Shown here: positions 3,304 through 42,710 of the stretch, piece by piece | How the letters are laid out: each line of letters begins with the position of its first letter | Position numbering within the stretch: position 1 is the first letter of the stretch | IMG/VR virus record: IMGVR_UViG_3300014969_000016 | Location: 32,001 to 96,000 of that record | DNA length: 64,000 nucleotides | Reading direction: 5' to 3' (one strand) | Source: a virus | Lineage: Duplodnaviria > Caudoviricetes | Position numbers and translations under genes: made by a program | Notes under the pieces: generated by a model | The model's input: only the letters and a program-made list of their open reading frames with translations | The model's database searches: none | Told to the model about the DNA's origin: nothing

Positions 3304-3371
3304 GGTGATCTCCTTCTGGAGCGTGGGGACGACGGGCGCCCCCTATGTGGGGTGATGTGTTACCCGTGTGA

Positions 3372-18535: not shown

Positions 18536-18608
18536 GGAGCGGGCGACGGGAATCGAACCCGTGTTTCGACCTTGGCAAGGTCGTGTACTACCTCTGTACG
18601 ACGCCCGC
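18535..18608 (-). tRNA. tRNA-Gly(GCC) with encoded CCA
   Basis: GCGGGCG TC GTAC AGAGGTA GTAC A CGACC TTGCCAA GGTCG AAAC ACGGG TTCGATT CCCGT CGCCCGC T CCA; all four stems pair. Confidence 0.96.
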
Positions 18609-21553: not shown

Positions 21554-21581
21554 GGAGCAACTATACCGTATCTTTGCAGTA

Positions 21582-21827
21582 TCACACTACCAGGGCGGCT
21601 TTTCCTGCCTCGTTGATCTTCCACACCCGGCATTCGCCCAGGGCGCCCTCCCAATGGACCTCCATGTCCACCAGGCGGCGCCTGACCAGGCTCTCCAGGG
21701 TCTTGCGGGTCAGGCTGGGGCTGCACCACACCCACTTGGCTTCGTACTGCCACGGCCCCTTGTCCTGGAGCATCTTCAACACCGTGCGCTGGTTGTTGCC
21801 CAGGCCCAGCAACGACCTGTGTGTCAT
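21582..21827 (-). CDS. Small winged-helix-like protein
   Basis: LGNNQRTVLKML...TLESLVRRRLV...WKINEAG. Confidence 0.55.
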   Translation of the reverse strand: MTHRSLLGLGNNQRTVLKMLQDKGPWQYEAKWVWCSPSLTRKTLESLVRRRLVDMEVHWEGALGECRVWKINEAGKAALVV

Positions 21828-25700: not shown

Positions 25701-25735
25701 AACGCAAACAGCCCCAGGGGGTTACCCTGGGGCTG
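25701..25735 (-). terminator. Terminator after the helicase gene
   Basis: CAGCCCCAGGG-N5-CCCTGGGGCTG TTTGCGTT; same family as 41180 and 42678. Confidence 0.8.
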
Positions 25736-27468: not shown

Positions 27469-27573
27469 GGTGATAGCTCCGGGATACGGGAAGTGGGAAA
27501 GGTCAGTGTACAGCCTGCACCCTGGTATCACAACGTGCTGTGATACCAGGGTACCAGGGTACGAGCGGCAGGC

Positions 27574-28443
27574 TCAGCCCCAGGGCAGGCCGTTCTTCTT
27601 GGCGCACACCGGCCCGTAGCCCACGGCCACCGAACGGTTGTCGCCCTCATCGGTCAACTCCAGGTTGCAGAAGCAGCAGTGGTGCGTGGCCCAGCCCAGG
27701 CCAGCAGCCTCAGCGGCCGTGGCGGGGCGCCCGTTGCGCACCATGGCCATGCCACCCTTGACGTAGTCCCAGGACAGCTTCTCACCGGCAACCGGCGCAG
27801 CGATCAGGCGCATGGCGTACTGGTTGCCCGACGTGCGGCCCGTGCGGATCAGCCAGAAGGATGACCAGTCGCCCTCAGGGCCGACCACGTACAGCCCGTT
27901 GGCCAGGGGCGTGCGAGGCGCACCCTTGGCAGCGACCATGCGGCCTGCAGCCTCACGCTGGCGCTCGGTGAGCGTGCGACCAGCATCAGCCTGGCCCACC
28001 AGGCTCGCAGCGAACTCACGGTTGCGAGGCGACGCAGCCGCATCGTCAGCGATGGCTCGCAGCGCTTCGACCAGGTCGTCCTTCGGCGTGACAGCCTTGG
28101 CGATCAGGTTGCGGGCGGCGAACAGGTTGATCAGCATGGCGTAGGCGACGTTCTCGTCGGCCGTGCCAGCGATGACCTGGCCCAGGACGCTCATGTCCAC
28201 GGTGGCCAGGGGATCGGATGCGAACGTGTGACCAGCGGCCAGCGCATCGATGCTGCGCACCGTGCCAGCGACCTGGGCGGCGATGGTGGGGGCGCACGTG
28301 GGGCAGATCGCGATCCACTTGCCAGAGGCATTGACGGCGGCGTAGCCGTGGCCCACTCGCGTGGCGTCCTTGCAGAAGAGGCACTGGCCATCGCGCTTGG
28401 TGGCGATGACTCGGCTGAATCGGGCGAGGCCTGGAGTGTTCAT
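27574..28443 (-). CDS. DUF6011-like Zn-binding protein
   Basis: C-terminal CCFCNLELTD....SVAVGYGPVCAKK; N-terminal CxxC pairs. Confidence 0.75.
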   Translation of the reverse strand: MNTPGLARFSRVIATKRDGQCLFCKDATRVGHGYAAVNASGKWIAICPTCAPTIAAQVAGTVRSIDALAAGHTFASDPLATVDMSVLGQVIAGTADENVAYAMLINLFAARNLIAKAVTPKDDLVEALRAIADDAAASPRNREFAASLVGQADAGRTLTERQREAAGRMVAAKGAPRTPLANGLYVVGPEGDWSSFWLIRTGRTSGNQYAMRLIAAPVAGEKLSWDYVKGGMAMVRNGRPATAAEAAGLGWATHHCCFCNLELTDEGDNRSVAVGYGPVCAKKNGLPWG

Positions 28444-28652
28444 GGGAGTGATCCGATCTCCGCACGGTGGCGGGGTGAAGTGGTGACAGGGATCATGATA
28501 GGGCGCATACCCTGGTATCACAACACGGCGTTGCTAGAAACTCGGGAATCTTTCAGGGCATCCCTGACGACATAACGCGGAGCAGCCCTGATCCCGTCCC
28601 ACCCGGATGCGGTAGCTCGGTGGCCTCGCGGCCCCGCTCGGAGTGGGCGCCC

Positions 28653-28925
28653 TCAGCAGGCGTCGTAGACCACGCCCGTGCCGTTGCACTCGGAGCAGAT
28701 GTCCACCTCAGCGAGCATCGCCTTGGCGACGGGGCTGGCCAGGCCAGAGCCTGAGGTGAGCGCCCAGCAGGCGGTGCTCACGGCATCGGAGAATCGGCTG
28801 CCGGTGCAGTTCATGATGTAGTGCGCCTCTTGCGAAACGACGGGGCGCAACTCATCGGCAAGACCGGAGTTCACGAAGATCAACTCGGCCCTGGGGTTGC
28901 CCAGCGTGGTGGTGGTGGTGGTCAT
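28653..28925 (-). CDS. Early hypothetical protein (leaderless)
   Basis: 90 aa; -10 box 6 nt before ATG; C-terminal CSECNGTG. Confidence 0.7.
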   Translation of the reverse strand: MTTTTTTLGNPRAELIFVNSGLADELRPVVSQEAHYIMNCTGSRFSDAVSTACWALTSGSGLASPVAKAMLAEVDICSECNGTGVVYDAC

Positions 28926-28989
28926 GGGATCAGTGTACAGGCGATACGTGGGTATCACAACACACTGTTGTGATACCCACGCAGATTTC

Positions 28990-29331
28990 TCAGACCTGCG
29001 TGCAGCCCTCCGCAGCCGCAGCCGCAGCGATCTCGTCACGCAGGCGGCGCATGCGCACCGCACGGGCGTCCTGCTCGGCGCGAGCGATGGGCGTGTTGCG
29101 GAACGCAGCCAGCAGGCCGTCGTTGCCACGGTTGTGGGCCATGATGATGACAGTCTTGTTGGGACCAGTCGTGACATTGATGCTGGCGAACCCGCTGCAC
29201 AGGTTGCCGGTGGCGCTGTTCACAGCATCCACGGTGCGGGCGATGGTGTAGCCCAGCGCGAGCATGTCACCGATCTCGGTGGCTGCCCACGTCTCGGTGG
29301 CGTAGTCGGTGGTGAGGGTGAGGGTGTACAT
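28990..29331 (-). CDS. Early hypothetical protein
   Basis: 113 aa from MYTLTL; own promoter. Confidence 0.7.
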   Translation of the reverse strand: MYTLTLTTDYATETWAATEIGDMLALGYTIARTVDAVNSATGNLCSGFASINVTTGPNKTVIIMAHNRGNDGLLAAFRNTPIARAEQDARAVRMRRLRDEIAAAAAAEGCTQV

Positions 29332-29413
29332 GGTGGTGAGTCCTGTCGGTCGGTGGTGATACCAGTGTATCGGGCGCACCGTGTTGTCACAACACGGTGC
29401 GCCTGATTTCTGA

Positions 29414-29710
29414 TCAGACCAGCGTGGCGCCCTTGCGGGCGGCGAACCGGCCGAACGCTGCGAGCATGCCCTCGCGGCCGATGTCCTTCGACATGCGGGC
29501 GACAGCCTTGTACGTGCTGCGCTTACGGTCGTACGAGCCGCCCGGATGGTTCGGGAACGATGATGCTGCCAGGACGGTGCCGTCGCTGCGCAGCACGTAG
29601 AACGTGCGGACGATGCCGCCGACGCCCTGCAGGCCGTCGTTGTCCTCGGCCGTGTAGTCGCTGGTTGCCTCGGCAAGCTTGACTGCGCCGCGGGCTGAAA
29701 TCTTGGCCAT
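29414..29710 (-). CDS. Early hypothetical protein
   Basis: 98 aa; own promoter; AAGGAG. Confidence 0.75.
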   Translation of the reverse strand: MAKISARGAVKLAEATSDYTAEDNDGLQGVGGIVRTFYVLRSDGTVLAASSFPNHPGGSYDRKRSTYKAVARMSKDIGREGMLAAFGRFAARKGATLV

Positions 29711-29801
29711 GGTGGTGGCTCCTTCGGTAGGTGGTGTGATACCAGTGTACAGGCATACACTGGTATCACAACACGGTGAGCAGGATTTCTTGGTGTCTCG
29801 T

Positions 29802-30056
29802 TCAGATGCTCCCGTCCATGTCGATACGGGCGACGATGGCGTCGGCCCGTGCGTACAGGGCGTCCACGTCGTCTTCGTCCAGGTACAGGCCAGCCTGCTC
29901 GGCAGCGTCGCTCAGCAGGGCGTACACAGCCTCCTGCATGGGCACCCACTCGTTGGCGCTGGCATCGCCAACGCTCAGGCCGTCCTCCAGGAAGGCGGCG
30001 CGGATCTGCTCGTTCGTGATCCGGATGCGGTTGATGGCGTCGTTGCCCACGTTCAT
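29802..30056 (-). CDS. Acidic early hypothetical protein
   Basis: 84 aa, D/E-rich, ATGA coupled. Confidence 0.7.
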   Translation of the reverse strand: MNVGNDAINRIRITNEQIRAAFLEDGLSVGDASANEWVPMQEAVYALLSDAAEQAGLYLDEDDVDALYARADAIVARIDMDGSI

Positions 30057-30220
30057 GACGTGACCTCGACGGTCCAGCCGTCACGGGCGACCATCTCGTC
30101 GTAGTTGCGGAGGATGTACATGGTGGCCCATGCGATGAGCGCCTTGTCGGTGCGCTCCACGGTGGAGTCCATCTCCAGCGGCTCGGAAAGCTGCGGGTGG
30201 CTCAGGCGGTAGGTGATCAT
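30053..30220 (-). CDS. 55-aa early protein
   Basis: MITYRLSHPQLSEPLEMD...; GGAG RBS; not in the ORF track. Confidence 0.65.
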   Translation of the reverse strand: MITYRLSHPQLSEPLEMDSTVERTDKALIAWATMYILRNYDEMVARDGWTVEVTS

Positions 30221-30371
30221 GGTGGTTCTCCCGGTAAGTGGTGGGTGGTGGGTGGCTCCCCGCCCGCAGGCGGGGAGCCGGTGCCCGAGTCTCAGGTCGG
30301 TGCCGCCTCTGTCGTGTGATACCAGTGTATCGAGCGCAGCGTGGTATCACAACACGCTGCGCCCGAATCTT

Positions 30372-30587
30372 TCAGGCGGTCACCCAGGGGGCGACGGCCC
30401 ACACCAGGTCGGTGGTGCGCATGAACAGCCCGTTGGGGTACAGGTCGGTCAGCACGGTGACGGTGCCAGGCGTGTCGTGGAATTCGAAGCCGGTCACCAC
30501 GTGGGGGATGTCGCTGGAATCAACGAACTCCTGGCCCACGCACAGGTGCGCAACCTCGCGGCGGATGTAAGTGGCTTGTGCGGTCAT
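30372..30587 (-). CDS. Early hypothetical protein (leaderless)
   Basis: 71 aa from MTAQAT. Confidence 0.7.
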   Translation of the reverse strand: MTAQATYIRREVAHLCVGQEFVDSSDIPHVVTGFEFHDTPGTVTVLTDLYPNGLFMRTTDLVWAVAPWVTA

Positions 30588-30679
30588 GGTGTCAGTGTAC
30601 AGGGTGGCGAGTGTTGTCACAACACGGTGACCAGGATTTCTCCCGGCCACCGTGTGTCGTGCTCCCTACCACCAGGAGA

Positions 30680-30895
30680 TCAGCCAGCGGTGAACACAGG
30701 CCTGCTGGTGCGCAGTGAGGCCTGGAAGAGCAGGTCGTAGATGGCCGTGCGGGCGGCGAACGCCGACGCACCGCTGCGGCGCAGGTTGCGGTAGTGGAAC
30801 CGCAGGTACCAGGCCGTGTAGTTGTCCACGGTGATGGTGTTGGGCGCGTAGTCAGCGTTGCGCCGGAACTTGATGATTTCGCGGGTGATGGTCAT
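30680..30895 (-). CDS. Early basic hypothetical protein
   Basis: 71 aa from MTITRE; AGGAG. Confidence 0.7.
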   Translation of the reverse strand: MTITREIIKFRRNADYAPNTITVDNYTAWYLRFHYRNLRRSGASAFAARTAIYDLLFQASLRTSRPVFTAG

Positions 30896-30976
30896 GGTTG
30901 GCTCCTGGCCGGTAAGTGGTGGTGGTGTCAGTGTACAGGGTGCGCCGTGTTGTGACAACACGGCGCACCAGGTTTC

Positions 30977-31177
30977 TCAGGCCGTGGCCTGCGCCCCATC
31001 GATGAGGAAGGCCGTCAGGTCTGCGACCTGCGAGGGATCCAGGTCAACGACCTGGCCATCGGTGGTGTAGACCCACACGTGGCCCTCATCGGTGAACACG
31101 GCGCGAAGACTGTCGCCCGTGCCATCGGTGGCATTGAAGTTGGATACGAGTGCGTTCTGGAACATGGTGCTCTCCAT
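30977..31177 (-). CDS. Early hypothetical protein
   Basis: 66 aa; own promoter. Confidence 0.7.
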   Translation of the reverse strand: MESTMFQNALVSNFNATDGTGDSLRAVFTDEGHVWVYTTDGQVVDLDPSQVADLTAFLIDGAQATA

Positions 31178-31240
31178 TCGGTGGTGTGATACCAGGGTAC
31201 AGGATGCACCCTGGTATCACAACACGGTCGGGCTGATTTC

Positions 31241-31561
31241 TCAGCGGGCGTTCACGGCGGCAACCGCCGCAGCGTGGCTGCCAGGGCACTCGCAACCGCC
31301 CATGGCGATCTGCAGGGCCGTGCAGGTGGGCAGGTGCCATTTGAACGACACCATCTGGCGGTCGATCTCCTGGGCGCCGTGCAGCAGGTTGGCTGCGAGC
31401 GTGCGAGCCTGCTCGGCGGTGAGGCGCAGGTCAGCCAGCACGCCGCCGTTGTCACGGTCGGTCACGCCGTCCTTCCACACCCGCACCATGACGGCGGGGC
31501 GCAGCTTGGCGTTCTGAACTTCGATCAGTTCGCCGTGGTCGGTGGCCTGGAGGGTTTGCAT
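31241..31561 (-). CDS. Early hypothetical protein
   Basis: 106 aa; LTAEQARTLAANL; H..TC......CEC. Confidence 0.7.
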   Translation of the reverse strand: MQTLQATDHGELIEVQNAKLRPAVMVRVWKDGVTDRDNGGVLADLRLTAEQARTLAANLLHGAQEIDRQMVSFKWHLPTCTALQIAMGGCECPGSHAAAVAAVNAR

Positions 31562-32205
31562 GTCGGTATCTCCCTGGTTCGGTCGGTGGTGTACCCCAGG
31601 ATACAGGAGTTGCTAGCAACCACAACCTCGATACCCAGGTTTATACCTGTTTTTATCCACAGAGTTGTCCACAGGCTGTGGGCGCAGCCCCGCCCCTGGG
31701 CAGGGGAGCGGAGCGCGACCGGCCACGGCAAGGGAGGCGGATCCCCACGCCGTGACCGGCTACCCCAGGGGCGGCGGAACATCCCCCAGGGCAGTCGCCC
31801 GTAGGCGACGTGGATGAGTCTACACGCGTGGCGCCACCCGGCCCTGGGACACTGGATGCGATGCCCAGGGCCGGGTGACTCCCGCCCGTTGCCGGTGGGT
31901 GAGCGTAACACAACAGCAACGTGGCGAGTCAAGGCGCGAGCGTGCGTACGCGTGTTCGCCACCCGTGTAGGGGTGGGTAGGCGAGAGCGCCAGCGCTCTT
32001 ACCTGGGTATCAGCGTTAGCGGTTGGTCAGTTATCCATGCCCCTAAAGACATGGCCCATGCCTCGTACGTAGTACTGCATGGCGGGTGCATCACACCTGG
32101 TAGATGGGCACGTGTACGCATGTAGTACTGCGTATGAGTCATGAGCCTTGCCTTCTAGGGAGCTTCTAGGGACACGCTTGTCCCGAACTTGGCCCGAATG
32201 ATTCG
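31562..32205. other. Second non-coding region with tandem DnaA boxes
   Basis: TTATCCACA 31653-31661 and TTGTCCACA 31665-31673; palindrome GTTGCTAGCAAC 31609-31620; no credible ORF. Confidence 0.6.
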
Positions 32206-32207
32206 AC

Positions 32208-32465
32208 TCAGGGCGTGCGGATCTCGCCCGTCTCATCGTGTTCCAACCAGTATCCACAGGCGTCTGTTCCAAGGGTCCAGCCGCTGTCGCTGACCAGCAC
32301 TGCATCCGGGCAGCCCTTGATCGTGGTGCCGTGGAGTGTTCCAAGGAAGACCATCCCATCGATGCCGTGGTCAGCAGTCTGCTTGGCAGCGGCCACCGTC
32401 ATCTCTTCTTCCTTGATCACGTAGTCGAACAGGTCGCACTGCTGTTCCAAGCTAGGTGGTGTCAT
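32208..32465 (-). CDS. Hypothetical protein
   Basis: 85 aa from MTPPSLEQQ. Confidence 0.6.
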   Translation of the reverse strand: MTPPSLEQQCDLFDYVIKEEEMTVAAAKQTADHGIDGMVFLGTLHGTTIKGCPDAVLVSDSGWTLGTDACGYWLEHDETGEIRTP

Positions 32466-32892
32466 AGTCCCACCCGTAGTGCTCGGGGTGCTCTTCCTTC
32501 CAAGCAGTGCGGTGAGCATGGCTGCGATGCGGTTCCAAGAGGCGTTCCAACCAGGGCACCTGGGCGCAGAGAGCATGGGCGCAATCGTGACAGATCACGC
32601 ACTCGTAGTCAGCAGGGGGCTGCATCATGCGAGGCTCGTTGTACTCAGGCTCCCAGTTGCGGTTCTCAATGGGGGTGACACCGTTCGGTGATGTCCTGGT
32701 CTTGTACTCACCATCCTCGCCACGCACCCAGCGATCCTCTGTGTTGTTGGGCAGCGTGGCCTGGAGGTTGTCCACGAACATGCCGTAGCCACCGTGGAAG
32801 CAGATCCACAGGCAGTTGTCGAAGGCGTACTCGGTATCAGGCATCGCCGTGTCAGGTGTAAGCGTGGTATCACACGCATAGCACTTAGTCAT
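32452..32892 (-). CDS. Zn-binding hypothetical protein
   Basis: CYAC...FHGGYGMFVD...ICHDCAH. Confidence 0.7.
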   Translation of the reverse strand: MTKCYACDTTLTPDTAMPDTEYAFDNCLWICFHGGYGMFVDNLQATLPNNTEDRWVRGEDGEYKTRTSPNGVTPIENRNWEPEYNEPRMMQPPADYECVICHDCAHALCAQVPWLERLLEPHRSHAHRTAWKEEHPEHYGWDYDTT

Positions 32893-33217
32893 GGAAGCGT
32901 TCCAGCACCTTCTCGACCTCTTCGGGTGTGACTGTTCCAGTGACATCCTCATGGCTGTCAAGCTGCTTGGCCCACAACAGGGTGACTGCGATGGGGCACA
33001 CCAGTTGCAGGCGCACGGCGTCGCCATCTTCGAAGTGGTCGTACAGCGGCTCGGTCAGTTCCAGGTGGCTGTCGCTGTCCAGCAGCACGTCCAGGCAGTC
33101 TTCCCAATGGGCACCACGCCAGTGTGGGTTGGCCGTGGTGAAGTGCTCCAGGGCCAACGCATTCTCGTTGGGCATGTTGTGGCGCACCCAGGCCAGGGCG
33201 TCGATGTATTGAGTCAC
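32885..33217 (-). CDS. Hypothetical protein
   Basis: 110 aa. Confidence 0.65.
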   Translation of the reverse strand: MTQYIDALAWVRHNMPNENALALEHFTTANPHWRGAHWEDCLDVLLDSDSHLELTEPLYDHFEDGDAVRLQLVCPIAVTLLWAKQLDSHEDVTGTVTPEEVEKVLERFHD

Positions 33218-33408
33218 TTGAACATTCCCTTCACGAAGTCCATTGCGAAGTAGCCCACCAGGAAGCTGATGAAGCCACGCTTGATCTTGACGGTGGTTGG
33301 TTCCAGCGTGCCGTTCTGTCGTTCGATCTCACGCTGGATGTGGTTGCGTTGCTGCACCAGGTCGGCGTACTGACGGCGCTGGCGCTGTGTGTCCTCGGTG
33401 CGGCTCAT
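33214..33408 (-). CDS. Small protein with a C-terminal hydrophobic segment
   Basis: 64 aa from MSRTED. Confidence 0.55.
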   Translation of the reverse strand: MSRTEDTQRQRRQYADLVQQRNHIQREIERQNGTLEPTTVKIKRGFISFLVGYFAMDFVKGMFK

Positions 33409-33460
33409 CGCTTCACCCAGCGTTCCCAGCGCTCTTGGAGGAAGTTCAGGATCATGAGTA

Positions 33461-33673
33461 TCACAGTTCCACCACCACTTCGTTACCGACGTATGCCGCG
33501 CCGTGGTAGCAGTCCTCATCGCCGCACCACGGGCCGTTCAGGTGGGTCACCTTGTCCTCGGCACCCTTGCGGGTGTGGTGCAGGCTCACCAGTTCAGGCT
33601 CCCACACGTTCTGCCACACAGGATGCACCACACGGGGCTGCACCTGGGCCAGACGCTCTTGCAGGTCACTCAT
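33461..33673 (-). CDS. Hypothetical protein
   Basis: 70 aa from MSDLQE. Confidence 0.55.
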   Translation of the reverse strand: MSDLQERLAQVQPRVVHPVWQNVWEPELVSLHHTRKGAEDKVTHLNGPWCGDEDCYHGAAYVGNEVVVEL

Positions 33674-33734
33674 CGCTTCACCACCGACACGAATGCCACG
33701 ATGACGATGCCCATGCAGATGAGTCCCAGCGCCA

Positions 33735-34103
33735 TCACCGATCACCCCTGATGTCTTCCTCGTTGGGCACGTACTCGTCCAGGTACAGGATGCCGCCCTG
33801 GGTGAACACTTGGTAGTCGATGCTGCCCAGGTAGGTGGAGTCGTCATCCTCGGCCTGCAGACGGTCGAAGCGTGCGCAAATGGCACCCTCCAGCGTCTGC
33901 CACGCCGTGTAGATGGCGTGGTCGGGGTGGTCAGGCTCGCTGGCCTCCACCGGCACCACAGCGCGCATCGGCGGCGCTGGGCGCACGCCCAGGATGGTGT
34001 TGACGAAGTTGAGGCTCGGCCCGTTCTGCGAAGTGCAGAAGTCCTCCCACGCCTCTTGCTCGTCCTCTCTCGGATCGGTGGGCGGCTCGTCGTTGCGGTA
34101 CAT
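33735..34103 (-). CDS. Acidic hypothetical protein
   Basis: 122 aa; cassette promoter at 34138-34166. Confidence 0.7.
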   Translation of the reverse strand: MYRNDEPPTDPREDEQEAWEDFCTSQNGPSLNFVNTILGVRPAPPMRAVVPVEASEPDHPDHAIYTAWQTLEGAICARFDRLQAEDDDSTYLGSIDYQVFTQGGILYLDEYVPNEEDIRGDR

Positions 34104-34179
34104 GTTGTGTCCTTCGTATCGGGTAAGTGGTGTGGTCAGTATACAAGCGTTACCGTGGTATCACAACACGTCGTTGCCA

Positions 34180-34353
34180 TCACTTGACCTCAAAGTCGTC
34201 GTAGCCGATGCCGACCAGGGTCCGGTACCGATACCGGCCGGGAAGCTCGTCCACGAACTTCTTGCGGTCGTAGATCGACACGAAGAACATGCAGACCAGT
34301 TCCTTGGGGTCACGGCTGGCAACGCCGTGGAGCATGTAGACCTTCTTGGTCAT
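34180..34353 (-). CDS. 57-aa hypothetical protein
   Basis: MTKKVYMLHGVAS...; ATGA coupled; not in the ORF track. Confidence 0.55.
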   Translation of the reverse strand: MTKKVYMLHGVASRDPKELVCMFFVSIYDRKKFVDELPGRYRYRTLVGIGYDDFEVK

Positions 34354-34568
34354 GACGCCACCACCCGGAAGGTCGGATCGAAGTGCTCACCGAAGCTGAG
34401 GTTGCCATCGACATCCTCAATCTCGTACGGCTCACCGTTGATGACGATGATCGCCTCGGTGCCATCGGGCAGGATAAGGATGCGCGCCCAGCCCTCGGTG
34501 GGGAGCGCTTCGTTGCTGCGGATCTTGTAGCTCCCGCGGTGTGTGGTCAGTGCGTAGGTGGTGCTCAT
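34350..34568 (-). CDS. Hypothetical protein
   Basis: 72 aa. Confidence 0.65.
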   Translation of the reverse strand: MSTTYALTTHRGSYKIRSNEALPTEGWARILILPDGTEAIIVINGEPYEIEDVDGNLSFGEHFDPTFRVVAS

Positions 34569-34828
34569 GCCGGTCCCGCCTGCATCTCGGAGCGCTCACG
34601 CATCAGCACTTCGATGGGCTGATCGTTGTCCAGGCTGTCGAACTGCTCTCGCACTTCGATCAGGTCGCTCTCGTCCAGGTCGTAGAGGGCGGCGTAGAAC
34701 TCCGGCTCATACTTCCACGGCTTCTCGACGGCGTAGGCCACGTCCTTGGCCTCGTAGTTGTTGTCAGCCAGCCAGGCGGTGAGTCGGACCATGTTGTCGT
34801 GGTCGTCCCACCAGTAGTCATTGCTCAT
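34565..34828 (-). CDS. Acidic hypothetical protein
   Basis: 87 aa; DVAYAVEKPWKY; promoter at 34867-34895. Confidence 0.7.
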   Translation of the reverse strand: MSNDYWWDDHDNMVRLTAWLADNNYEAKDVAYAVEKPWKYEPEFYAALYDLDESDLIEVREQFDSLDNDQPIEVLMRERSEMQAGPA

Positions 34829-34897
34829 GTTGGTGTTGTCCTTGTCTTGGTAGGTGTTGTGTTATCAGTGTATCGGATGAGTGTTGTGTTACCAACG

Positions 34898-35071
34898 TCA
34901 GTTGGAGTAATCCCTGTCCTTGCCATCGAAGCCATCTTCGAAGCCACGCTTGAACTCAGCGAACGCTTCCTTGCCCTCTCGGGCCACGTCAGCGAACGTG
35001 AAGCGTGGGTCGAAGTCGTCGTGCTCGCGACGGTACTGACCAGTGAAGTAGCCGTCCTCGTAGTGCGTCAT
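34898..35071 (-). CDS. 57-aa hypothetical protein
   Basis: MTHYEDGYFTG...FKRGFEDGF; not in the ORF track. Confidence 0.55.
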   Translation of the reverse strand: MTHYEDGYFTGQYRREHDDFDPRFTFADVAREGKEAFAEFKRGFEDGFDGKDRDYSN

Positions 35072-35268
35072 CGTGGTACCTCGTACGTCCTGACGTACTC
35101 ATGCAGGTGGCCGTCCTTTTCGAAGATGCCTTCGATGGTGACTTCGATCCCTCCGGTGGCCTGGCCTTCGAACTCCACGGTGACGTTGAAGATGTCAGCG
35201 TGCTGCTGGCACTCGTCCACGAAGTTGGCCACGGTGAGCATGGTGTCTCGATCTAGTCCGTACATCAC
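35068..35268 (-). CDS. Hypothetical protein
   Basis: 66 aa, coupled. Confidence 0.6.
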   Translation of the reverse strand: MMYGLDRDTMLTVANFVDECQQHADIFNVTVEFEGQATGGIEVTIEGIFEKDGHLHEYVRTYEVPR

Positions 35269-35624
35269 TCGACCTCCTGATAGGTGCGACGGTGGACGAT
35301 GCTGTTGATGACCGGCTGGGCCAGCCCGCCATACATCTCGCCAAGCTCGCGCTGGCTGTACTTGCCGCTGGCGTACTTCGTGCGGATCTCACGCACCTGC
35401 TTGTCGGTGAGTGAGCGCTGGCGTGTGTTGGGCGTGCCCTTGGCTGGGCCACGCTGGGCCATGCCGTTGACGTGCTTGGCAGGCCTGAGCGTGTCCAGGG
35501 TGGCCCTGGCGCTGTCCAGGATCTCCTGGCGTTCACGCTGCTTCAACACGATCTGCTCTTGCAGCACTTCGATCTGATTGTCGATCCTGGCCACTCGTTT
35601 GAGCAGCGTCTCCATGTCGCTCAT
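35265..35624 (-). CDS. Coiled-coil + helix-turn-helix protein
   Basis: LTDKQVREIR...SQRELGEMYG.LAQPVINSIV. Confidence 0.8.
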   Translation of the reverse strand: MSDMETLLKRVARIDNQIEVLQEQIVLKQRERQEILDSARATLDTLRPAKHVNGMAQRGPAKGTPNTRQRSLTDKQVREIRTKYASGKYSQRELGEMYGGLAQPVINSIVHRRTYQEVE

Positions 35625-36433
35625 GACGCAACCTCTCCCTGCTGGGCCGAGAGCGATGCGAGCAGCGACGCCATCAGGTCAGCGGACGGGTCGATGTTGT
35701 GCTCGACCGGAGCAGGAGCCTCCACGCCTTGAGCCTTCTGATCGACGTAGGCCTGCGCCACGGGCGCATTGGTGTCCACCAGGGTGGGCGCATCGATGCC
35801 GATGGCGTCCACCAGCATGTTGGCGACGTTGCGCTCCGCATCGAAGATGGCCACGCTGGCCGGTGCCGTCGTGGGCTGGCGCACTGCGTCGGCCGTGTAG
35901 ACCAGGAACAGGTTGCCATCAGCGTCCAGCAGGGCGTAGCGGGCCGGTCCACGCATGGCGACCTTGACCAGTGCGTACAGCTTGCGCTCACGCATGACGG
36001 TGGTGAGCAGGACGAACGCCTTCTCCACGGCGCCGTTGATCTTGCCCTTCTCGCGCTTGGGGCGCACCTGCTTGACGCCTTCGACCAGGTACTTGCCGAA
36101 GTCCTTGGCCTTGACGAAGCAGACGATCTCAGCCAGCCCACGTGGTGACGTGCAGGCGGCGATCTCGTCGTCGGTGAAGGTGACCCAGGCGCCGTTGCTG
36201 GCCTGAGCCATGCGGGTCACGTCGGTGGGGTGGACAACCTCGCCCGTGTCCTTGCGGATGACGGCGCGGCCCAGCGGGATGTTGGCGTCCCCCCGGTAGA
36301 ACTCGGAGCGGGCGACCCTCGTCTCTTCGGTCCCCGTGAAGACGGAGAGCGGCATGACGAGCATCGGGCCGAAGCTCAGTGTGATAGTGGTGGTGGCCCT
36401 GACGGGCGCCCCAGCCAGAGCGGTGGGTGACAT
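35621..36433 (-). CDS. ku: Ku-like DNA end-binding protein
   Basis: LSFG..VMPLSVFTGTEE, GEVV...DVTR....G.WV.FTDDEI, IVCFV, ALVKVAMRG, DLMASL.ASL follow the prokaryotic Ku pattern. Confidence 0.8.
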   Translation of the reverse strand: MSPTALAGAPVRATTTITLSFGPMLVMPLSVFTGTEETRVARSEFYRGDANIPLGRAVIRKDTGEVVHPTDVTRMAQASNGAWVTFTDDEIAACTSPRGLAEIVCFVKAKDFGKYLVEGVKQVRPKREKGKINGAVEKAFVLLTTVMRERKLYALVKVAMRGPARYALLDADGNLFLVYTADAVRQPTTAPASVAIFDAERNVANMLVDAIGIDAPTLVDTNAPVAQAYVDQKAQGVEAPAPVEHNIDPSADLMASLLASLSAQQGEVAS

Positions 36434-36507
36434 TGGTGTGTCCTTTCGGGACGATTCCGGTGAGTGGTACGTGTATCAGTGTACATGGTGTTGCTATCAA
36501 CACCAAC

Positions 36508-36546
36508 CTCCCAGCACAGGTATTGTTGAGATACCTGTGCTGGGAG
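36508..36546 (-). terminator. 16-bp stem-loop between the AAA and Ku genes
   Basis: CTCCCAGCACAGGTAT-N7-ATACCTGTGCTGGGAG, abutting the promoter at 36478-36506. Confidence 0.65.
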
Positions 36547-36553
36547 AGAGCTA

Positions 36554-37840
36554 TCAGGGCGCCGACACCAGCGCCTCAGCCTCACGCTGGCGCTGCTCTT
36601 CGGTGAGCATCACGAAGATGCTGCGAGCCTCCAGGATCTCTTCGACCACCGGGATCTCGTTGGCCTTGAACATACCGGTGAAGATCTGCACGCCCAGGGC
36701 GATGCCCATCTCCAGGATGTCCTGCTCCAGGTTGGCCAGGGCCGTGGTGCCGACCGGCGTGCGAAGCTGGTTGCTCTGACGGGCCAGGCGCAGGTAGTCG
36801 CCCAGCAGGCGCACGGCCTGGCTGTCGATCAGCTTGGCTTCGATGACCTTGTCGTAGTCCCAGCGGATGTGACGGAACCGGTTGATGAACGCCTCGTTCA
36901 TCTCACCCATGCCCTTGTATCCCTCGTTGTACGTGCCGATGATCCACAGGTCGTAGCTGGCGTTCACCGTCTCGGGCATCAGCATGCCGCTGGTGCCATC
37001 GAAGGTGGTCTTCCACACGGCCTTGTTGCGGTTGGTGAACTCATGGCGGTGGTCAGCCAGCGGGTGGAGCGACGACGTGACTCGCGCATCGAATGCGTTG
37101 ATCTCGTCCAGGTAGAGGATGCCACCGGCCAGCGCCGCCAACTCGACCAAGCCGGGGAGCCAGTGAAGCTCACCCATGTAGCTGGTCATCTGACCGAACA
37201 GGTCGAAGTCAGTGATGCCGCTGGATCCCGAGAGTGTGAACACGGGCATTGGCTTGGGCAGCCCCAGCATCTCGGACCACTCCACGGCCAGAACCTCAAC
37301 GAGCATCGTCTTGCCCGACTGCGTCTCACCCTTCAACATGATGTTGGCGGGGCGCTCCTGGTTCTTCTTGCGGTACGCCTTGGTGGTGAAGCGCAGCAGC
37401 ATCTCCACGTCGGTGGAGCCATCAGCCATGATGCGGTTGATGTACGCCTTGACCTTGGCCTTGCTCGGGCGCAGGTGATCCAGGCGCTCGTCCATCGGGT
37501 CGGTGATCGGCTGGATCATGTGGCTGAGCAGAAGGCCGCTGGCCTGTTGCTGAGTCATCGGCGCCACGCTCGGCTCGTACTCCGGGGCAGCAGCCACCGT
37601 GGGAACGGTAACGACCTGGGCCGGTGCGGTGGCGAAGCCTTCGGGCGTGTCGCTGAGCAGCCGGGGCAGCATGAAGATCTCTTCGCCGTGCGGGCCAGCG
37701 ACCTTGATCTTGCGCTGGTTCACGGGATCGTCTTCGGCCCGGATGATGGTGTTGTCAACGATGGTGACAACCTCGTCTTCGTAGAGGCCTTTGAGCACCC
37801 GGTACTTGAAGCCTGGGATGAGTGAGGCTGCGAGAGCCAT
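36554..37840 (-). CDS. MoxR/CbbQ/CobS-like AAA+ ATPase
   Basis: GETQSGKT, ILYLDEIN, GTYNEGY.G, AFINRF; ATG 37840 with AAAGGA. Confidence 0.9.
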   Translation of the reverse strand: MALAASLIPGFKYRVLKGLYEDEVVTIVDNTIIRAEDDPVNQRKIKVAGPHGEEIFMLPRLLSDTPEGFATAPAQVVTVPTVAAAPEYEPSVAPMTQQQASGLLLSHMIQPITDPMDERLDHLRPSKAKVKAYINRIMADGSTDVEMLLRFTTKAYRKKNQERPANIMLKGETQSGKTMLVEVLAVEWSEMLGLPKPMPVFTLSGSSGITDFDLFGQMTSYMGELHWLPGLVELAALAGGILYLDEINAFDARVTSSLHPLADHRHEFTNRNKAVWKTTFDGTSGMLMPETVNASYDLWIIGTYNEGYKGMGEMNEAFINRFRHIRWDYDKVIEAKLIDSQAVRLLGDYLRLARQSNQLRTPVGTTALANLEQDILEMGIALGVQIFTGMFKANEIPVVEEILEARSIFVMLTEEQRQREAEALVSAP

Positions 37841-37879
37841 GGTGGTGATCCTTTCAGATCGGGGTAAGTGGTGCGGCAA

Positions 37880-38182
37880 ACGATACAGCGGTTACAGCGG
37901 TAACACAACACGCTCGGCCAAGATTTCTCAGCGACCTGGGCAAACGCCGTTATCGATTGCGACTTCGAAACTGGCGATTTCTGGCCCTCTACCTGGTGTG
38001 ATGATGCCTGTTGTGACAACACACGATGCCCCAGGATCGACGCAAACGCGTTTTGGGCAGTGTGGGTGCGGAACAGGGGTATCGGCCCTCACAGGGCCAC
38101 ACAGAGGCCTCTGGCGGGTTGCTAGCAGGTCACCCACTATCTCAACAGCCGTGTTGTGTTACGGGTGGGCATCCTGTATCGT
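37880..38182. promoter_or_regulatory. Divergent cassette promoters for the AAA and VWA genes
   Basis: TTGTGT-N17-TATCGT on minus (37880-37908) and on plus (38154-38182); extra TGTTGTGACAACA at about 38009. Confidence 0.8.
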
Positions 38183-38189
38183 GTCCTCC

Positions 38190-40337
38190 ATGACCGCACG
38201 TACCCGCAAGCCTCGCAAGAAGGCGACCACCGACATCGGCCGGTCGATCCTGCAGCGTGAGCGTCAGCGGCTGGCCAAAGAGCAAGCTGATCTTGCCGAG
38301 AAGCTGGCTGAGGATGCCGCCCGCAGTCGTCGCGCCAACAGGACGAAGAAGAACAACCCGATCACCACGGCCGACAACGCCATGCAGCGCTCCATCGTGC
38401 GCCGTGTCGCTGGTGCCCTGGCGTCTGAGGGTGTGAACGTGCCCATCGAAGCGCACGTGATCCCCAACGAGCAGGGTGTCACGGCCTGGACTGACTTCGA
38501 CCGGATCTACGCCGGGTATCACCTTCACGATGACGTGCGGATCACCGCCGCCGTGCTGCGTGGCGAGTTGTACCACGAAGGTGGCCACTGCCGCTTCACC
38601 GACCCGTTCGTTGACCTGGAGGTTGACGCCAAGAACGAGTGCGGATTCGAAGGCACCGTGGACGAGTTCCGCGTGGCCCTGGGTGGCCGTGACATGACAC
38701 GGGGCGAGATGCACCGTGCGTGGAACGCCCTGGAGGATCAGCGGATGGAGACGGCCGTGGTGAGCGACAGCCCACGCAAGGCCGGATACCTCACTCCCAT
38801 GATGCTGAGCGAGTTGGCCTACAGCCCCGAGATGGCGTGCGCCAACTGGCCGCTGATGGTGTGGCGCAAGTACCTGCCCCGCAAGATCCGCGACGGTGCG
38901 AAGGCGCTGTTCATGGCTGAGCACGGGCCGGATGTCGTGCGCCAGATCCAGATCGTCGTGACCCGCTACGTGCTGGCCACCACGGCCACCGACATGTACA
39001 TGGCCACCGTGGAGATGGCTGAGATCTTCAAGACCATCCAGACGGCCTTCGACATCGATGACAAGGGTGCGGGCCATGATCGCCAGCGCTCCCGCCGTGG
39101 CACGCCTGGCAACAGTGAGCGCGAGATCCCCGTGTCCTCCGACATGATCGAAGAGAACGACGACGAGATCGAATCGATCCCCCAGCCCGGAGCGGGCAAG
39201 CCTTCCAAGGCTCCCAAGCAGGATGCTCCGAAGGCAGACGACGCCCAGGGCGCCGGTACCGATGCCACCGATGAGGAAGATGCCGAAGAGGGCGATGCTT
39301 CCAAGGGTGAGCAGGAGTCGGACGATGCTGGCGATGCCTCGCCTCAGGAAGAGGGCGGCGACAGCGGCACGCACGAAGACGACGGTGCCGATGTCAAGGA
39401 GCCGGAAGCTTCCAAGGATGAGTCGGACGACGACAGCGATGGCGTTGGCGACGACGAGGATGACGAGGAAGACGACGACGAGGATGACGACGACGGCCTG
39501 ACCCAGGAAGATCTGGACGAGGCGCTGGCAGAGGCTGAGGAAGAGCGTCTGAACGATCCGACTCTCGACCAGGACGCGCAAGCGTTCCATGACGCCAAGA
39601 ACGACACGGCCACGGCATTGAAGCCATACGTCGGCGGCATCTGCTCCAACCCGTTGGAAGTGGCAGAGGCCAACAACCTGGCTGATCAGATGCAGCGTGC
39701 TTTCGAGACGGCCACGGCCGAACTGCAGCCGATGTGGAAGGAGCAGCAGCGCCGGGGCATCCTCAACGTGCTGCGCTACGAGACGCGCCAGGCTGGCGAT
39801 GTCGAGTTCTTCCGCAACTACGTGGACAACGGCAACCCTGGCTGCGACATCGCCGTCAGCGTCCTGCTGGACTACAGCGGTTCCATGGGCAGCGTGGAGG
39901 CTGAACTGGCCAAGGTCGCCTTCGCCTGCAAGCGGGCGGGCGATCTGCTGGGGATCCCGGTCACGGTGACCCTGTGGGATACCGACGCCCGTGTGTTGTG
40001 GGACGCCAGCGAGCGTGCCGAGCACCTGCCGGTCATCGATGCCCAGGGTGGCACCAACCCGCAGGTCGCTCTCAACGACCTGGACAACCAGCGGTTCGGC
40101 AAGGCCAAGCACGTGGTGCTGATCATGACGGACGACGCCTGGAACAACGGAGCGCCCACCCTGGCCAGCTACAAGTCTGAGGGTCGCCTGATCATCGGGC
40201 TGGGCTACACAGACGGCACCTACAGCCCGTACATCCAGGAGTCGATGGAGAAGAAGGGCGCCGACTTCGCCTACAGCATCAAGGATCTCGCAGAGATCCC
40301 CCGGCACCTGGAGCAGGCGCTCATCACCGTCGCCTGA
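38190..40337 (+). CDS. CobT-like VWA protein with an N-terminal HExxH domain and acidic linker
   Basis: YHEGGH, WNALEDQRME, MIDAS LLDYSGSM, GGT, IMTDD; leaderless ATG 38190. Confidence 0.9.
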   Translation: MTARTRKPRKKATTDIGRSILQRERQRLAKEQADLAEKLAEDAARSRRANRTKKNNPITTADNAMQRSIVRRVAGALASEGVNVPIEAHVIPNEQGVTAWTDFDRIYAGYHLHDDVRITAAVLRGELYHEGGHCRFTDPFVDLEVDAKNECGFEGTVDEFRVALGGRDMTRGEMHRAWNALEDQRMETAVVSDSPRKAGYLTPMMLSELAYSPEMACANWPLMVWRKYLPRKIRDGAKALFMAEHGPDVVRQIQIVVTRYVLATTATDMYMATVEMAEIFKTIQTAFDIDDKGAGHDRQRSRRGTPGNSEREIPVSSDMIEENDDEIESIPQPGAGKPSKAPKQDAPKADDAQGAGTDATDEEDAEEGDASKGEQESDDAGDASPQEEGGDSGTHEDDGADVKEPEASKDESDDDSDGVGDDEDDEEDDDEDDDDGLTQEDLDEALAEAEEERLNDPTLDQDAQAFHDAKNDTATALKPYVGGICSNPLEVAEANNLADQMQRAFETATAELQPMWKEQQRRGILNVLRYETRQAGDVEFFRNYVDNGNPGCDIAVSVLLDYSGSMGSVEAELAKVAFACKRAGDLLGIPVTVTLWDTDARVLWDASERAEHLPVIDAQGGTNPQVALNDLDNQRFGKAKHVVLIMTDDAWNNGAPTLASYKSEGRLIIGLGYTDGTYSPYIQESMEKKGADFAYSIKDLAEIPRHLEQALITVA

Positions 40338-40360
40338 TACCCAGGTATCACAATCACCCA

Positions 40361-40393
40361 GGAGCCTCACCGTTAACTAGACGGTGAGGCTCC
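40361..40393 (+). terminator. Stem-loop after the VWA gene
   Basis: GGAGCCTCACCGT-N7-ACGGTGAGGCTCC. Confidence 0.6.
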
Positions 40394-40419
40394 GACCTTC
40401 CAAGCCACACTGAGGAACC

Positions 40420-40623
40420 ATGACCACGCCCATCAAGCTGAGCGACCCGACCAAGGCACGCCGCAACGGCATCCTGTCGTGCGACGAGTGCGGGCGAGAG
40501 ATCTCCGTACTGGCCCACCAAGATCCGGAGTTGGGCGATGGCTGGCCACTGCATCGTTGCCCTGCCACCAACGGAGAGCCGCGAGCATTCGACCGGTTCG
40601 ATGTTGTGATACCACTGCGGTAG
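40420..40623 (+). CDS. Zn-ribbon microprotein
   Basis: CDECG...HRC; GAGG RBS. Confidence 0.65.
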   Translation: MTTPIKLSDPTKARRNGILSCDECGREISVLAHQDPELGDGWPLHRCPATNGEPRAFDRFDVVIPLR

Positions 40624-40638
40624 CTGTACACTGGTGTT

Positions 40639-41103
40639 ATGACCACAGTACCGATTGCAGTGCGGCCCACACCGCTGCCGTCACAGGCCAAGCCATGGGC
40701 CAAGGCGGGCGTTCACCTGCTGGTGCTCTACGCCATCTTCGGAGTGTTCCTGATTCGCTACTCCACCAACCTGAACAAGGGGCTGGACGAGGGCCGTGTC
40801 ACCATGGCTGATGCCGGGATGCTGCCGTACATCGAAGGCACCGAGACAGTCAACACAGCGACCGGCCAGGTCACATCGGTCGGCCCGCTGAACTACGACC
40901 TGCGCCTAGCCCTGGGTGATGACTGGTTCACCGGTAGCTACACGGGCGCCGACAAGCATCACATCTGCGAAGTGTTCCGGGTGGACCCGGCCCAGGTGTG
41001 GCAGATGATCGCCACAAACCAGGGTTACGAGGACACGCCCGAGAACCGTGCGACCAGCGATGCGTTCTACGCTGAGCAGTGCGCCAAGAGCGGCGCCGCC
41101 TAG
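40639..41103 (+). CDS. Membrane-anchored protein (leaderless)
   Basis: One TM near the N-terminus; promoter TTGTGA-N17-TACACT at 40604-40632. Confidence 0.75.
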   Translation: MTTVPIAVRPTPLPSQAKPWAKAGVHLLVLYAIFGVFLIRYSTNLNKGLDEGRVTMADAGMLPYIEGTETVNTATGQVTSVGPLNYDLRLALGDDWFTGSYTGADKHHICEVFRVDPAQVWQMIATNQGYEDTPENRATSDAFYAEQCAKSGAA

Positions 41104-41179
41104 ATCGCGCTCACCATCAACGCATATGAAAACCGGCTAGCCACGCGGGACCGGCGCAGGCATGGCAGAGCAGACGCTG

Positions 41180-41214
41180 CAGCCCCCCCGCATGGCTGGG
41201 GGGCTGTTTGCGTT
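41180..41214 (+). terminator. Rho-independent terminator
   Basis: CAGCCCCCC...GGGGGGCTG TTTGCGTT. Confidence 0.75.
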
Positions 41215-41459
41215 CAGCGGTGTTCCAGGAAGTGCGTGCTGTGACGGCTGTGCTGGGTGACGTGCTTGCCCGCCTCGCGATACCGGGGGCGAGGATCCGG
41301 CCCAGCGGTGGGGAGACACACGGCAGCGTGCATGCTGCCCTTCATCACGTGCCCACCCTTCTGAGCAGGATCACAAACGGCGCCGCCGCGGACCACGTTG
41401 AGGGGCATGGGCGGCTGACGGTTGGGATCGTTCGCACGGTCGGGTGGACCCTTCGGCAT
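41214..41459 (-). CDS. Small protein with NDPNRQ motif
   Basis: 81 aa, isolated on the minus strand. Confidence 0.4.
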   Translation of the reverse strand: MPKGPPDRANDPNRQPPMPLNVVRGGAVCDPAQKGGHVMKGSMHAAVCLPTAGPDPRPRYREAGKHVTQHSRHSTHFLEHR

Positions 41460-41566
41460 CGATACAACAGTATCAGCCTTAGAGGATCTGAGCGAGTATG
41501 GGATGCATAGAGCGATATGCCTAGTGGCGTGTTGTGTTAACAGCGCACGCAGGGTACAATGAACGC

Positions 41567-42677: not shown

Positions 42678-42710
42678 CAACAGCCCCCCTTCGGGGGGCT
42701 GTTGTGCGTT
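42678..42710 (+). terminator. Terminator at the early/late convergence
   Basis: CAACAGCCCCCC-TTCG loop-GGGGGCTGTTG TGCGTT. Confidence 0.8.

Follow-up and report, generated by a model that had tools for sequence, protein, structure and literature searches.

A repeated promoter-like element with context-dependent, covarying hairpins in the early region of a high-GC phage

The DNA considered here, referred to as the window, is a 64,000-nucleotide stretch comprising bases 32001-96000 of one virus record (IMGVR_UViG_3300014969_000016, Caudoviricetes; full length 115,714 bp), and its subject is a short intergenic element that recurs, with the geometry of a promoter, within the early or DNA-metabolism region of this phage. 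Where copies of the element follow one another head to tail, the promoter boxes are overlapped by long inverted repeats whose register differs from copy to copy, whose presence depends on a same-strand gene ending just upstream, and whose pairing has been kept between related phages through changes on both sides of the stem. The explanation favoured here, which is considered reasonably probable, is a composite one in which the element would act both as an early promoter read by the host and as a 3'-end or insulator RNA hairpin for the cassette upstream.

According to this composite explanation, each copy would be a strong early promoter recognised by the host RNA polymerase carrying the housekeeping sigma factor, in which a 17-nt spacer separates an extended -35 box (TTGTGAYACC) from a -10 box (TACACT) and a GAAATC word precedes the boxes at a distance of one or two helical turns; its transcripts would be either leaderless or provided with a conserved short leader. 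In a head-to-tail array the 50-90 nt that separate a stop codon from the next transcription start would also have to hold the 3'-end structure of the upstream message, a demand that the phage would have met through the evolution of sequences complementary to the conserved words of the promoter itself; the same DNA would thus serve as a promoter in its duplex form and would yield a 13-18-bp hairpin in the read-through RNA from the cassette above. Because any complement that fits would suffice, the register would differ between copies, the hairpin lying upstream of the -35 box, being centred on it, holding it in the loop or pairing it with the -10 box. Such a hairpin would attenuate or insulate read-through, shield the 3' end of the upstream mRNA, or do both.

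Copies of the element and their promoter geometry

The element stands out clearly from the background expectation. A strict pattern matches 11 times against 0.05 expected, and a looser regular expression applied to the whole 115,714-bp genome matches 14 times, every match lying at window positions 27505-41560. A two-block position weight matrix assigns scores of 31-44 bits to 14 strong copies, which share the motif TTGTGAYACC-N15-TACACT, and shuffled genomes produce 0-2 matches that reach 12 bits. The -35 box begins (first T) on the minus strand at 27533, 28523, 28960, 29392, 29771, 30352, 30622, 30958, 31222, 34166 and 37908, and on the plus strand at 38154, 40604 and 41532; the strong copies are thereby confined to about 14 kb of the 115.7-kb genome. 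A preliminary description of this DNA had put the number of copies at about 18, and its weaker copies exist where it placed them: four degenerate copies (34867-34895, 36478-36506, 21560-21587 and 31598-31625) accompany the 14 strong ones. Extending the motif scan from the whole genome to its relatives gave a promoter family of 46 members, taken from the phage and eight related metagenomic contigs, which is used for the comparisons below. Exact identity between copies extends over only about 16-17 bp. A generic promoter and terminator scan of the E. coli type, which is ill-suited to TANNNT -10 boxes, recovered only three copies; no Rfam family matched across window positions 20-44 kb; viral contigs scanned for the element with 14-mers yielded no more than single matches at chance level; and a literature search on the motif words returned unrelated primer sequences only.

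The reading of the element as a promoter, which had been proposed in the preliminary description, is well supported by its -35/-10 geometry and by a bimodal distribution of the distance between the -10 box and the start codon, and the element behaves as a promoter of the host-sigma type. Among the 46 family promoters the start codon lies 6-7 nt from the -10 box in at least 12, a spacing consistent with leaderless mRNAs that begin at the A of the ATG. No start codon lies 8-15 nt after the -10 box, and in the remaining promoters it lies 25-68 nt away, behind a Shine-Dalgarno sequence of the GGAG type, the one exception being copy 31222, for which the automatic call is 16 nt. Since neither sigma-70 region 2 nor region 4 domains are encoded by the phage, whose genome is rated 98% complete by CheckV, the host holoenzyme is likely to be the enzyme that reads these promoters. 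The host would be an actinobacterium, to judge from the GC content of about 63%, the TANNNT -10 boxes, the frequent leaderless starts, a Ku-like gene and weak matches to ATPases of Gordonia and Brevibacterium phages. The GAAATC word is placed either 12-13 nt or 22-23 nt ahead of the -35 box, positions that are one helical turn apart, and it is probably a DNA contact on one face of the helix similar to that made by an UP element.

The leadered transcripts of the family share a further word, CCACTTACC, at about +5 to +15, ahead of the Shine-Dalgarno sequence. It occurs exactly at window positions 30233, 30911, 34122 and 37863 and as variants at 27488, 29726 and 36459, is present also in the contigs L103, L001, L002 and L128, persists down to 48% helicase identity, and may be a translational or RNA-binding signal.

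Context and conservation of the hairpins

The hairpins are tied to the position of the upstream gene rather than to the promoter itself. By hand inspection of the window, a palindrome is present in 8 of the 10 copies that have a same-strand gene ending just upstream and in none of the five copies elsewhere; in the tandem copies the hairpins have 13-18 pairs, lie between the upstream stop codon and the start site, and overlap the promoter boxes. Perfect arms of at least 10 bp are found in 7 of 9 tandem copies (the eighth hairpin-bearing tandem copy is 30622), compared with 1.4% of the 75-nt windows of the genome used as a random control. The same dependence holds in the promoter family at large, where a hairpin of at least 9 Watson-Crick pairs is present at 14 of the 15 promoters for which an upstream same-strand gene end was detected and at 11 of the 31 others (Fisher p = 3e-4), a comparison in which the upstream-gene detector overlooks some genes, so that its bias runs against the association. 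The five strong copies outside 27.5-31.3 kb, as well as copy 28523 of the DUF6011 gene, have no palindrome. The preliminary description had treated the palindrome as part of the element, and this needs correcting, since the copies that lack it show that it is not intrinsic. The predicted transcription start lies at or beyond the 3' limit of every hairpin, and the hairpins would therefore be present only in RNA that comes from the upstream cassette.

The strongest evidence that pairing is selected comes from the helicase promoter, whose upstream-mirrored hairpin has been kept in six phages although the helicase proteins are only about 50-56% identical. Of 78 alignment cells 98.7% are paired, 5 of the 13 pairs have changed on both sides, none of 500 shuffles matches this degree of pairing, and every slid register collapses; the loop varies from 6 to 16 nt among the six phages, and the outer arms covary in L103, L001, L002, L003 and L104. 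The promoter of the gene g30680 provides evidence of another kind, because its hairpin is centred on the -35 box in the present phage and lies upstream in L103, with the right arm abutting the -35 box. Across the copies the mirrored words are spaced from 1 to about 27 nt apart, and their orientation flips between head-to-head and tail-to-tail. These observations support selection on pairing, rather than on the sequence or position of the arms, and the earlier suggestion that symmetry or structure is selected in addition to sequence is thus upheld by the covariation in six phages and by the change of register in L103.

The individual tandem copies illustrate the variety of registers, and all of those described in this paragraph are on the minus strand. 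The inverted repeats listed in the preliminary description were all recovered at the coordinates given there, with perfect arms of 14, 16, 15, 15, 10, 15 and 14 bp, and the sequence itself shows the five stop codons that it placed 0-3 nt ahead of the GAAATC word. In the helicase promoter (27505-27552; -35 box 27533-27528, -10 box 27510-27505) the arms of the upstream-mirrored hairpin (27519-27552) measure 14 bp and enclose a loop of 6 nt. The promoter at 28932-28991 contains a hairpin at 28947-28981 with 16-bp arms and a 3-nt loop, its GAGAAATC word is fused to the upstream stop codon, and the ATG 6 nt past its -10 box (copy 28960) begins the leaderless gene 28653-28925. Hairpins centred on the -35 box are found in the promoters at 29364-29412 (hairpin 29373-29403, 15-bp arms) and 30930-30978 (hairpin 30939-30969), and the outer arms of these two hairpins covary with each other. 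The -35 and -10 boxes themselves form the two arms in the promoters at 29735-29791 (hairpin 29735-29770, 15-bp arms) and 31185-31242 (hairpin 31185-31221); in the latter, copy 31222, the -10 box TACCCT departs from the consensus and the opposite arm carries the matching change. At 30324-30372 the -35 box is the loop of a hairpin at 30334-30362 with 10-bp arms (14 pairs including one G.U). For the promoter at 30594-30655 (copy 30622) the preliminary description gave a repeat of 7 bp, which is present, but it overlooked a 15-pair hairpin at 30622-30655 (two G.U pairs, GAAA loop) that lies upstream and abuts the -35 box; the downstream gene is leaderless, its ATG lying 6 nt past the -10 box. The hairpins that pair the -35 box with the -10 box also read as weaker plus-strand promoters (29734-29761 and 31184-31212; 23-24 bits), and these opposite-strand matches could fire antisense into the upstream gene.

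The copies without a hairpin, and the degenerate ones, are more diverse in setting. The DUF6011-gene promoter (28495-28553, minus) has a TTGCTAGAAA word at 28531-28540 and a AAAGATTC word at 28546-28553, and a hairpin is likewise absent from the orthologous promoter in L103. Strong promoters without a hairpin are found at 34138-34166 (minus); at 37880-37929 (minus), which is the AAA-ATPase promoter and the leftward half of a divergent pair; at 38154-38182 (plus), the rightward half of the same pair, which serves a leaderless 715-aa gene; and at 40604-40632 (plus), inside the 3' end of gene 40420-40623, which serves a leaderless 154-aa gene. The promoter of a leaderless 188-aa gene at 41532-41560 (plus) is preceded by a canonical T-tailed terminator at 41180-41206. 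Among the degenerate copies, all on the minus strand, the one at 31598-31625 (TTGTGG-N16-TATCCT, with TTGCTAGCAA within the spacer) is the promoter of gene 31241-31561, the one at 34867-34895 reads TTGGTA-N17-TACACT, and the outlying variant at 21560-21587 has a 16-nt spacer, a -10 box TATAGT and an ATG 6 nt beyond it. The Ku-gene promoter (36478-36546; TTGGTG-N17-TACACT, with TTGCTATCAA within the spacer) has a terminator hairpin with 16-bp arms (36508-36546) directly ahead of it, whose G/T-rich tail is the -35 region itself.

Role of the hairpin and rival explanations

Several observations bear on the level at which the hairpins act. In the promoter family the sense-strand fold is the more stable in 33 cases and the antisense fold in 13 of the 46 (p = 8e-4), the non-Watson-Crick positions in the 25 main helices comprise 15 G.U and 2 A.C, and a GAAA or GAAACT loop closes three upstream hairpins. 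The strand bias, the context dependence and the GAAA loops together are suggestive of an RNA hairpin and favour it short of proof. The excess of G.U over A.C was also considered as decisive proof of action in RNA and was downgraded, since it depends on a permissive extension of the helix ends and is accounted for in part by the G/T-rich constrained arm. An RNA hairpin would more probably attenuate or insulate read-through, and protect the cassette mRNA at its 3' end, than bring about clean termination. On the plus strand, ATTTCT-like tails follow four of the hairpins, and the possibility that the GAAATC word supplies the U-tract of terminators acting in the antisense direction was rejected because the wobble bias is the opposite of that expected and because the distance between word and stem is too great in L001; the spacing of the word from the -35 box is better accounted for by a promoter-associated DNA contact.

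A number of points weigh against the composite explanation, or against particular parts of it. The promoter-constrained arm is rich in G and T, so that transitions in the free arm yield G.T automatically, and this confounds the G.U bias; the ratio of G.U to A.C falls to 9:2 at unconstrained positions and 5:2 in the strictest subset, and if all mismatch types are allowed there are 4 G.U, 1 A.C and 6 others. The promoter-embedded hairpins have no U-tract on the sense strand, and the same phage possesses canonical terminators, consisting of a GC hairpin with a TTTGCGTT-type tail, at the ends of operons (25709-25735, minus, after the helicase gene; 41180-41206 and 42678-42704, plus). In the account given in PMC4351075, mycobacterial RNA polymerase is reported to require a U-tract (Czyz et al. 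2014, PMC3993855), and together with the missing U-tract this requirement makes true termination doubtful. Copy 34166 has no hairpin despite a gene end 13 nt upstream. The actinobacterial host, finally, is itself deduced from features of the sequence only.

The cassettes served by the element form a hyperplastic block of about 20 small unrelated ORFan genes (28653-35624, minus) between the Ku and DUF6011 genes. No paralogy was detected among the cassette proteins, on which ground an origin of the array by tandem gene duplication was rejected, and the block genes match no Pfam family. The surrounding backbone, namely the divergent 715-aa gene, the ATPase, Ku, the variable block, DUF6011 and the helicase, is syntenic in L001, L003, L006 and L103, in which the variable block measures 4-7 kb and nearly all of its small genes have been replaced. 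L103 has five of the block's small genes in common with the phage, and the order of cassettes, which the preliminary description had proposed to compare between relatives, is not fixed: it is g30680, promoter, g30372, promoter, g30053 in the present phage; g30680 coupled to g30053, then promoter and g30372 in L103; and a g30372-like gene coupled to g30053 in L128. The fixed gene order that would have told against the preliminary description is therefore not observed. The g30053 homologue follows two different upstream genes, to each of which it is coupled by a start/stop overlap that contains no element. Synonymous identity is 69-74% for the shared cassette genes and 60-71% for the backbone; recent horizontal transfer of g30053 was considered on account of its 90% protein identity to the L103 homologue and was rejected, its synonymous identity of 71% being within the backbone range. 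Helicase-based scans of viral, metagenome and genome contigs for closer relatives gave none above 56% identity and no prophage, and a search with g30680 as probe gave no match. L001 and L002 are 86% identical to each other, and the L002 record does not contain the array. The homologues of g30372 in L103 (7375-7700) and L128 (194-504) have a Cys-rich C-terminal extension with a WDCTCREC motif, which the 71-aa g30372 of the present phage (window 30372-30587) does not have.

These data bear directly on a further role proposed in the preliminary description, in which the element would be a recombination joint, the short homology between its copies allowing promoter-plus-ORFan cassettes to be inserted, deleted or exchanged without an integrase. 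This role is compatible with the composite explanation as an addition to it, and is regarded as possible but rather unlikely. It is consistent with the position of the array in a hyperplastic block between conserved Ku and DUF6011/helicase genes, with the replacement of nearly all ORFans in relatives, with the three orders and linkages of three conserved cassette genes in the phage, L103 and L128, with the fact that the element's own TGA often ends the upstream open reading frame, with the finding of no tyrosine or serine recombinase domain in the phage, and with the precedent of the T4-type PeSL elements (PMC2839356, PMC4122927). The junctions that could be mapped, however, are the start/stop overlaps of g30053, which lack the element and fit ordinary illegitimate recombination at gene boundaries; the synonymous identity of the cassettes is near that of the backbone, so nothing points to recent exchange; the exact identity between copies is short; and with relatives at no more than 56% helicase identity no breakpoint can be placed within the element. 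The proposal is therefore supported only in part, by the replaced block of varying order, and a role of the element as the joint is unproven.

The remaining alternatives seek to explain the symmetry itself. A dimer operator, at which a regulator would bind mirrored words (GGTATCACA/TGTGATACC or GTGTTGT-N-ACAACAC) overlapping the promoter, would account for the conservation of the TGTGATAC core at about 50-56% helicase identity, also in L001 and L002, which have it in the spacer and not at the -35 box, and for a stand-alone TGTTGTGACAACA palindrome between divergent promoters (38009-38021). It is nevertheless improbable and the claim was not sustained, since the half-sites are spaced from 1 to about 27 nt apart and flip in orientation from copy to copy, the arms reach 13-18 bp with non-conserved outer positions that covary, and promoters without an upstream gene have one word only; the small proteins 35265, 22751 and 42174 have no homologue in related loci that bear the motif, and the constancy expected of an operator is instead displayed by a separate fixed palindrome of 10-12 bp, TTGCTAGCAA. 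An absence of function is also improbable, and slightly more so: template switching would perfect quasi-palindromes seeded by the repeated promoter words, for which perfect arms are the expected product, and it would agree with the observations that one arm is always a conserved promoter word and that the registers are haphazard, but it does not explain why the same type of helicase-promoter hairpin recurs in six phages with synonymous sites near saturation and five compensatory pairs, or why palindromes are missing from isolated and divergent promoters that contain the same words. Least probable of all, and very unlikely, is a structure acting in DNA, either a cruciform or single-strand hairpin controlling the promoter as in N4, which the preliminary description had cited as a precedent, or a nuclease target. 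The long, near-perfect arms would permit extrusion under supercoiling, yet extrusion would destroy boxes and spacing that are of the sigma-70 type, five strong copies lack any palindrome, the wobble bias favours the non-template strand, and the palindromes depend on an upstream gene end in a way that a promoter-intrinsic structure would not; no single-subunit RNA polymerase (RNA_pol domain) was found, in a search whose control was uninformative. The composite of promoter and RNA hairpin thus remains the favoured explanation.

Neighbouring features and known systems

Nearly all genes of the phage are carried by the minus strand. Those that flank or divide the array there are the helicase gene (25753-27468), the DUF6011 protein gene (27574-28443), the Ku-like protein gene (35621-36433) and the AAA_5 ATPase gene (36554-37840); a short rightward operon starts at 38190 on the plus strand, and the sole tRNA found in the window, tRNA-Gly(GCC), lies at 18535-18608 (minus). 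The three canonical terminators, which lie on opposite strands, have a near-identical stem, a run of C followed by a run of G, with the same TTTGCGTT-type tail, and they close the operons that end with the helicase gene and with the rightward genes.

The fixed palindrome (G)TTGCTAGCAA(C) occurs at eight sites with at most one mismatch, against 0.42 expected: 25158, 25685, 28531, 31610, 36491 and 38119, and also 48225 and 54803. In the relatives it is found in L001 (2496, 8124 and 11040), L002 (213 and 3085-3757), L103 (2553), L104 (2949 and 3045) and L105 (3689), and its positions are conserved in the spacer of the Ku promoter, upstream of the DUF6011 promoter and in a cluster just downstream of the helicase. 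It marks the promoters of backbone genes and not the ORFan cassettes, and it looks like the operator of a dimeric regulator.

Several other words and blocks recur in the non-coding DNA. DnaA-box-like words of the TTGTCCACA and TTATCCACA types, in pairs or quartets, lie at 31653-31674 (minus), immediately ahead of the degenerate promoter that serves gene 31241-31561, and L103 has them at the corresponding position (about 6430-6495); they may be a replication origin or a DnaA-dependent control point. A non-coding block containing GGGACGGGATCAGGG (about 28560-28650, minus) separates the last ORFan from the DUF6011 promoter; it matches no Rfam family, is conserved between phages (L103, about 8480-8560, and the start of L002), and may be a small RNA or a protein-binding region. 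The stand-alone TGTTGTGACAACA palindrome lies within the 246-bp gap between the divergent promoters, shares its core with the -35-centred hairpins and is not followed by a -10 box. A recurrent CACAGGGCC...CACAGAGGCC word is present in non-coding DNA near promoters at about 38085-38115, in L103 at about 3490-3515, in L001 at about 880-1010 and in L002 at about 60-110.

If the composite explanation is correct, portable promoter-terminator cassettes, which are known only from AT-rich T4-type phages of Gram-negative hosts, would extend to an unrelated and uncultivated high-GC clade, and this would suggest a convergent answer to the problem of how numerous small accessory genes can be expressed and insulated. 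The sharing of sequence between promoter boxes and hairpin arms would be a compact case of one sequence under simultaneous selection at the DNA and RNA levels, and the copies would form a natural set of variants for the study of hairpins without a tail in high-GC bacteria, where it is still disputed whether such hairpins act as terminators, pause sites or stabilisers. The promoter family could in addition serve as a cheap metagenome marker for the early regions of this phage clade, and its members are candidate compact strong promoters, some of them leaderless, for actinobacterial synthetic biology.

The closest analogue among known systems appears to be the PeSL of T4-type phages, in which ORFans of hyperplastic regions are preceded by a sigma-70 early promoter together with a stem-loop terminator and an AT-rich stretch, and for which promoter and terminator activity, recombination at the motif and mini-circles have been shown experimentally (Arbiol et al. 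2010, PMC2839356; Comeau et al. 2014, PMC4122927). The present element agrees with it in three or four of the six functional features compared. Both are repeated early promoters of the sigma-70 type with a stem-loop between the upstream stop codon and the promoter and a word containing A and T upstream of the -35 box, and both are found in hyperplastic ORFan regions where each small gene is its own transcription unit. The stem-loop of a PeSL, in contrast, is a separate structure upstream of the AT-rich stretch, whereas here it is built, in varying register, from the promoter's own -35 box, its -10 box or both, and the place of the AT-rich stretch is taken by a GAGAAATC word of only 6-8 nt, which lies 12-13 or 22-23 nt before the -35 box and upstream of the hairpin. 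The present element also differs in its lack of a U-tract, its high-GC setting and its many leaderless mRNAs. It is not a PeSL by descent: megablast of the phage genome against 50,697 phage records gave no DNA match, and protein similarity is only weak, to AAA ATPases of Gordonia and Brevibacterium phages and to distant helicases. The element is accordingly better seen as a high-GC counterpart of the PeSL than as something wholly new in kind, the new feature being a hairpin made from promoter boxes. A stronger version, in which about 40 nt carrying two overlapping codes would also be a portable linker for the gain, loss and reordering of ORFans, and would amount to an independent, integrase-free invention of the PeSL strategy in an undescribed high-GC phage clade, is tentative and thought unlikely.

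Other known systems resemble the element in fewer respects. An integron-like array is not what is found here, because no tyrosine or serine recombinase domain was detected and each cassette has its own promoter. The host-takeover module of SPO1 is likewise a dense set of small early genes, each with a strong promoter, but those promoters are not embedded in hairpins as the copies here are. N4 has promoters that coincide with hairpins, in that case template-strand DNA hairpins of 5-7 bp read by the virion RNA polymerase, whereas sigma-70-type boxes are present here and a hairpin is missing from five copies. Early promoters of the high-GC actinophage phiC31 were reportedly found, in work from the Smith laboratory in the 1990s, to be similar to one another and to contain conserved inverted repeats (CIRs) bound by the phage repressor; CIRs are fixed-sequence protein operators, unlike the arms described here, which vary and covary. 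The stoperators of Cluster A phages are asymmetric 13-bp sites for a monomeric immunity repressor, distributed genome-wide and dependent on orientation (PMC9283540, PMC6550527). They resemble the present element as short conserved words repeated between genes of an actinophage, some of them overlapping promoters, and differ in that the word here is the -35 box, is confined to the early region, and is accompanied by neither a repressor nor an integrase that could be found.

The Cluster O mycobacteriophages (Corndog and its relatives) possess SigA-like promoters, leaderless divergent promoters and a 17-bp palindromic repeat (PMC4351075), and they share with the present phage a high GC content, a long leftward early region with Ku-like and AAA-ATPase genes, predicted SigA-type promoters with +1 at the start codon, terminators whose T-rich tails are short and a repeated palindrome. 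No protein similarity to Cluster O phages was detected in the phage collection. They have 8-9 promoters, compared with the array of 14-18 described here, and their palindrome is invariant in sequence and spacing, is distributed genome-wide, as is typical of a protein site, so that it resembles TTGCTAGCAA of the present phage and not the variable hairpins of the promoter array.

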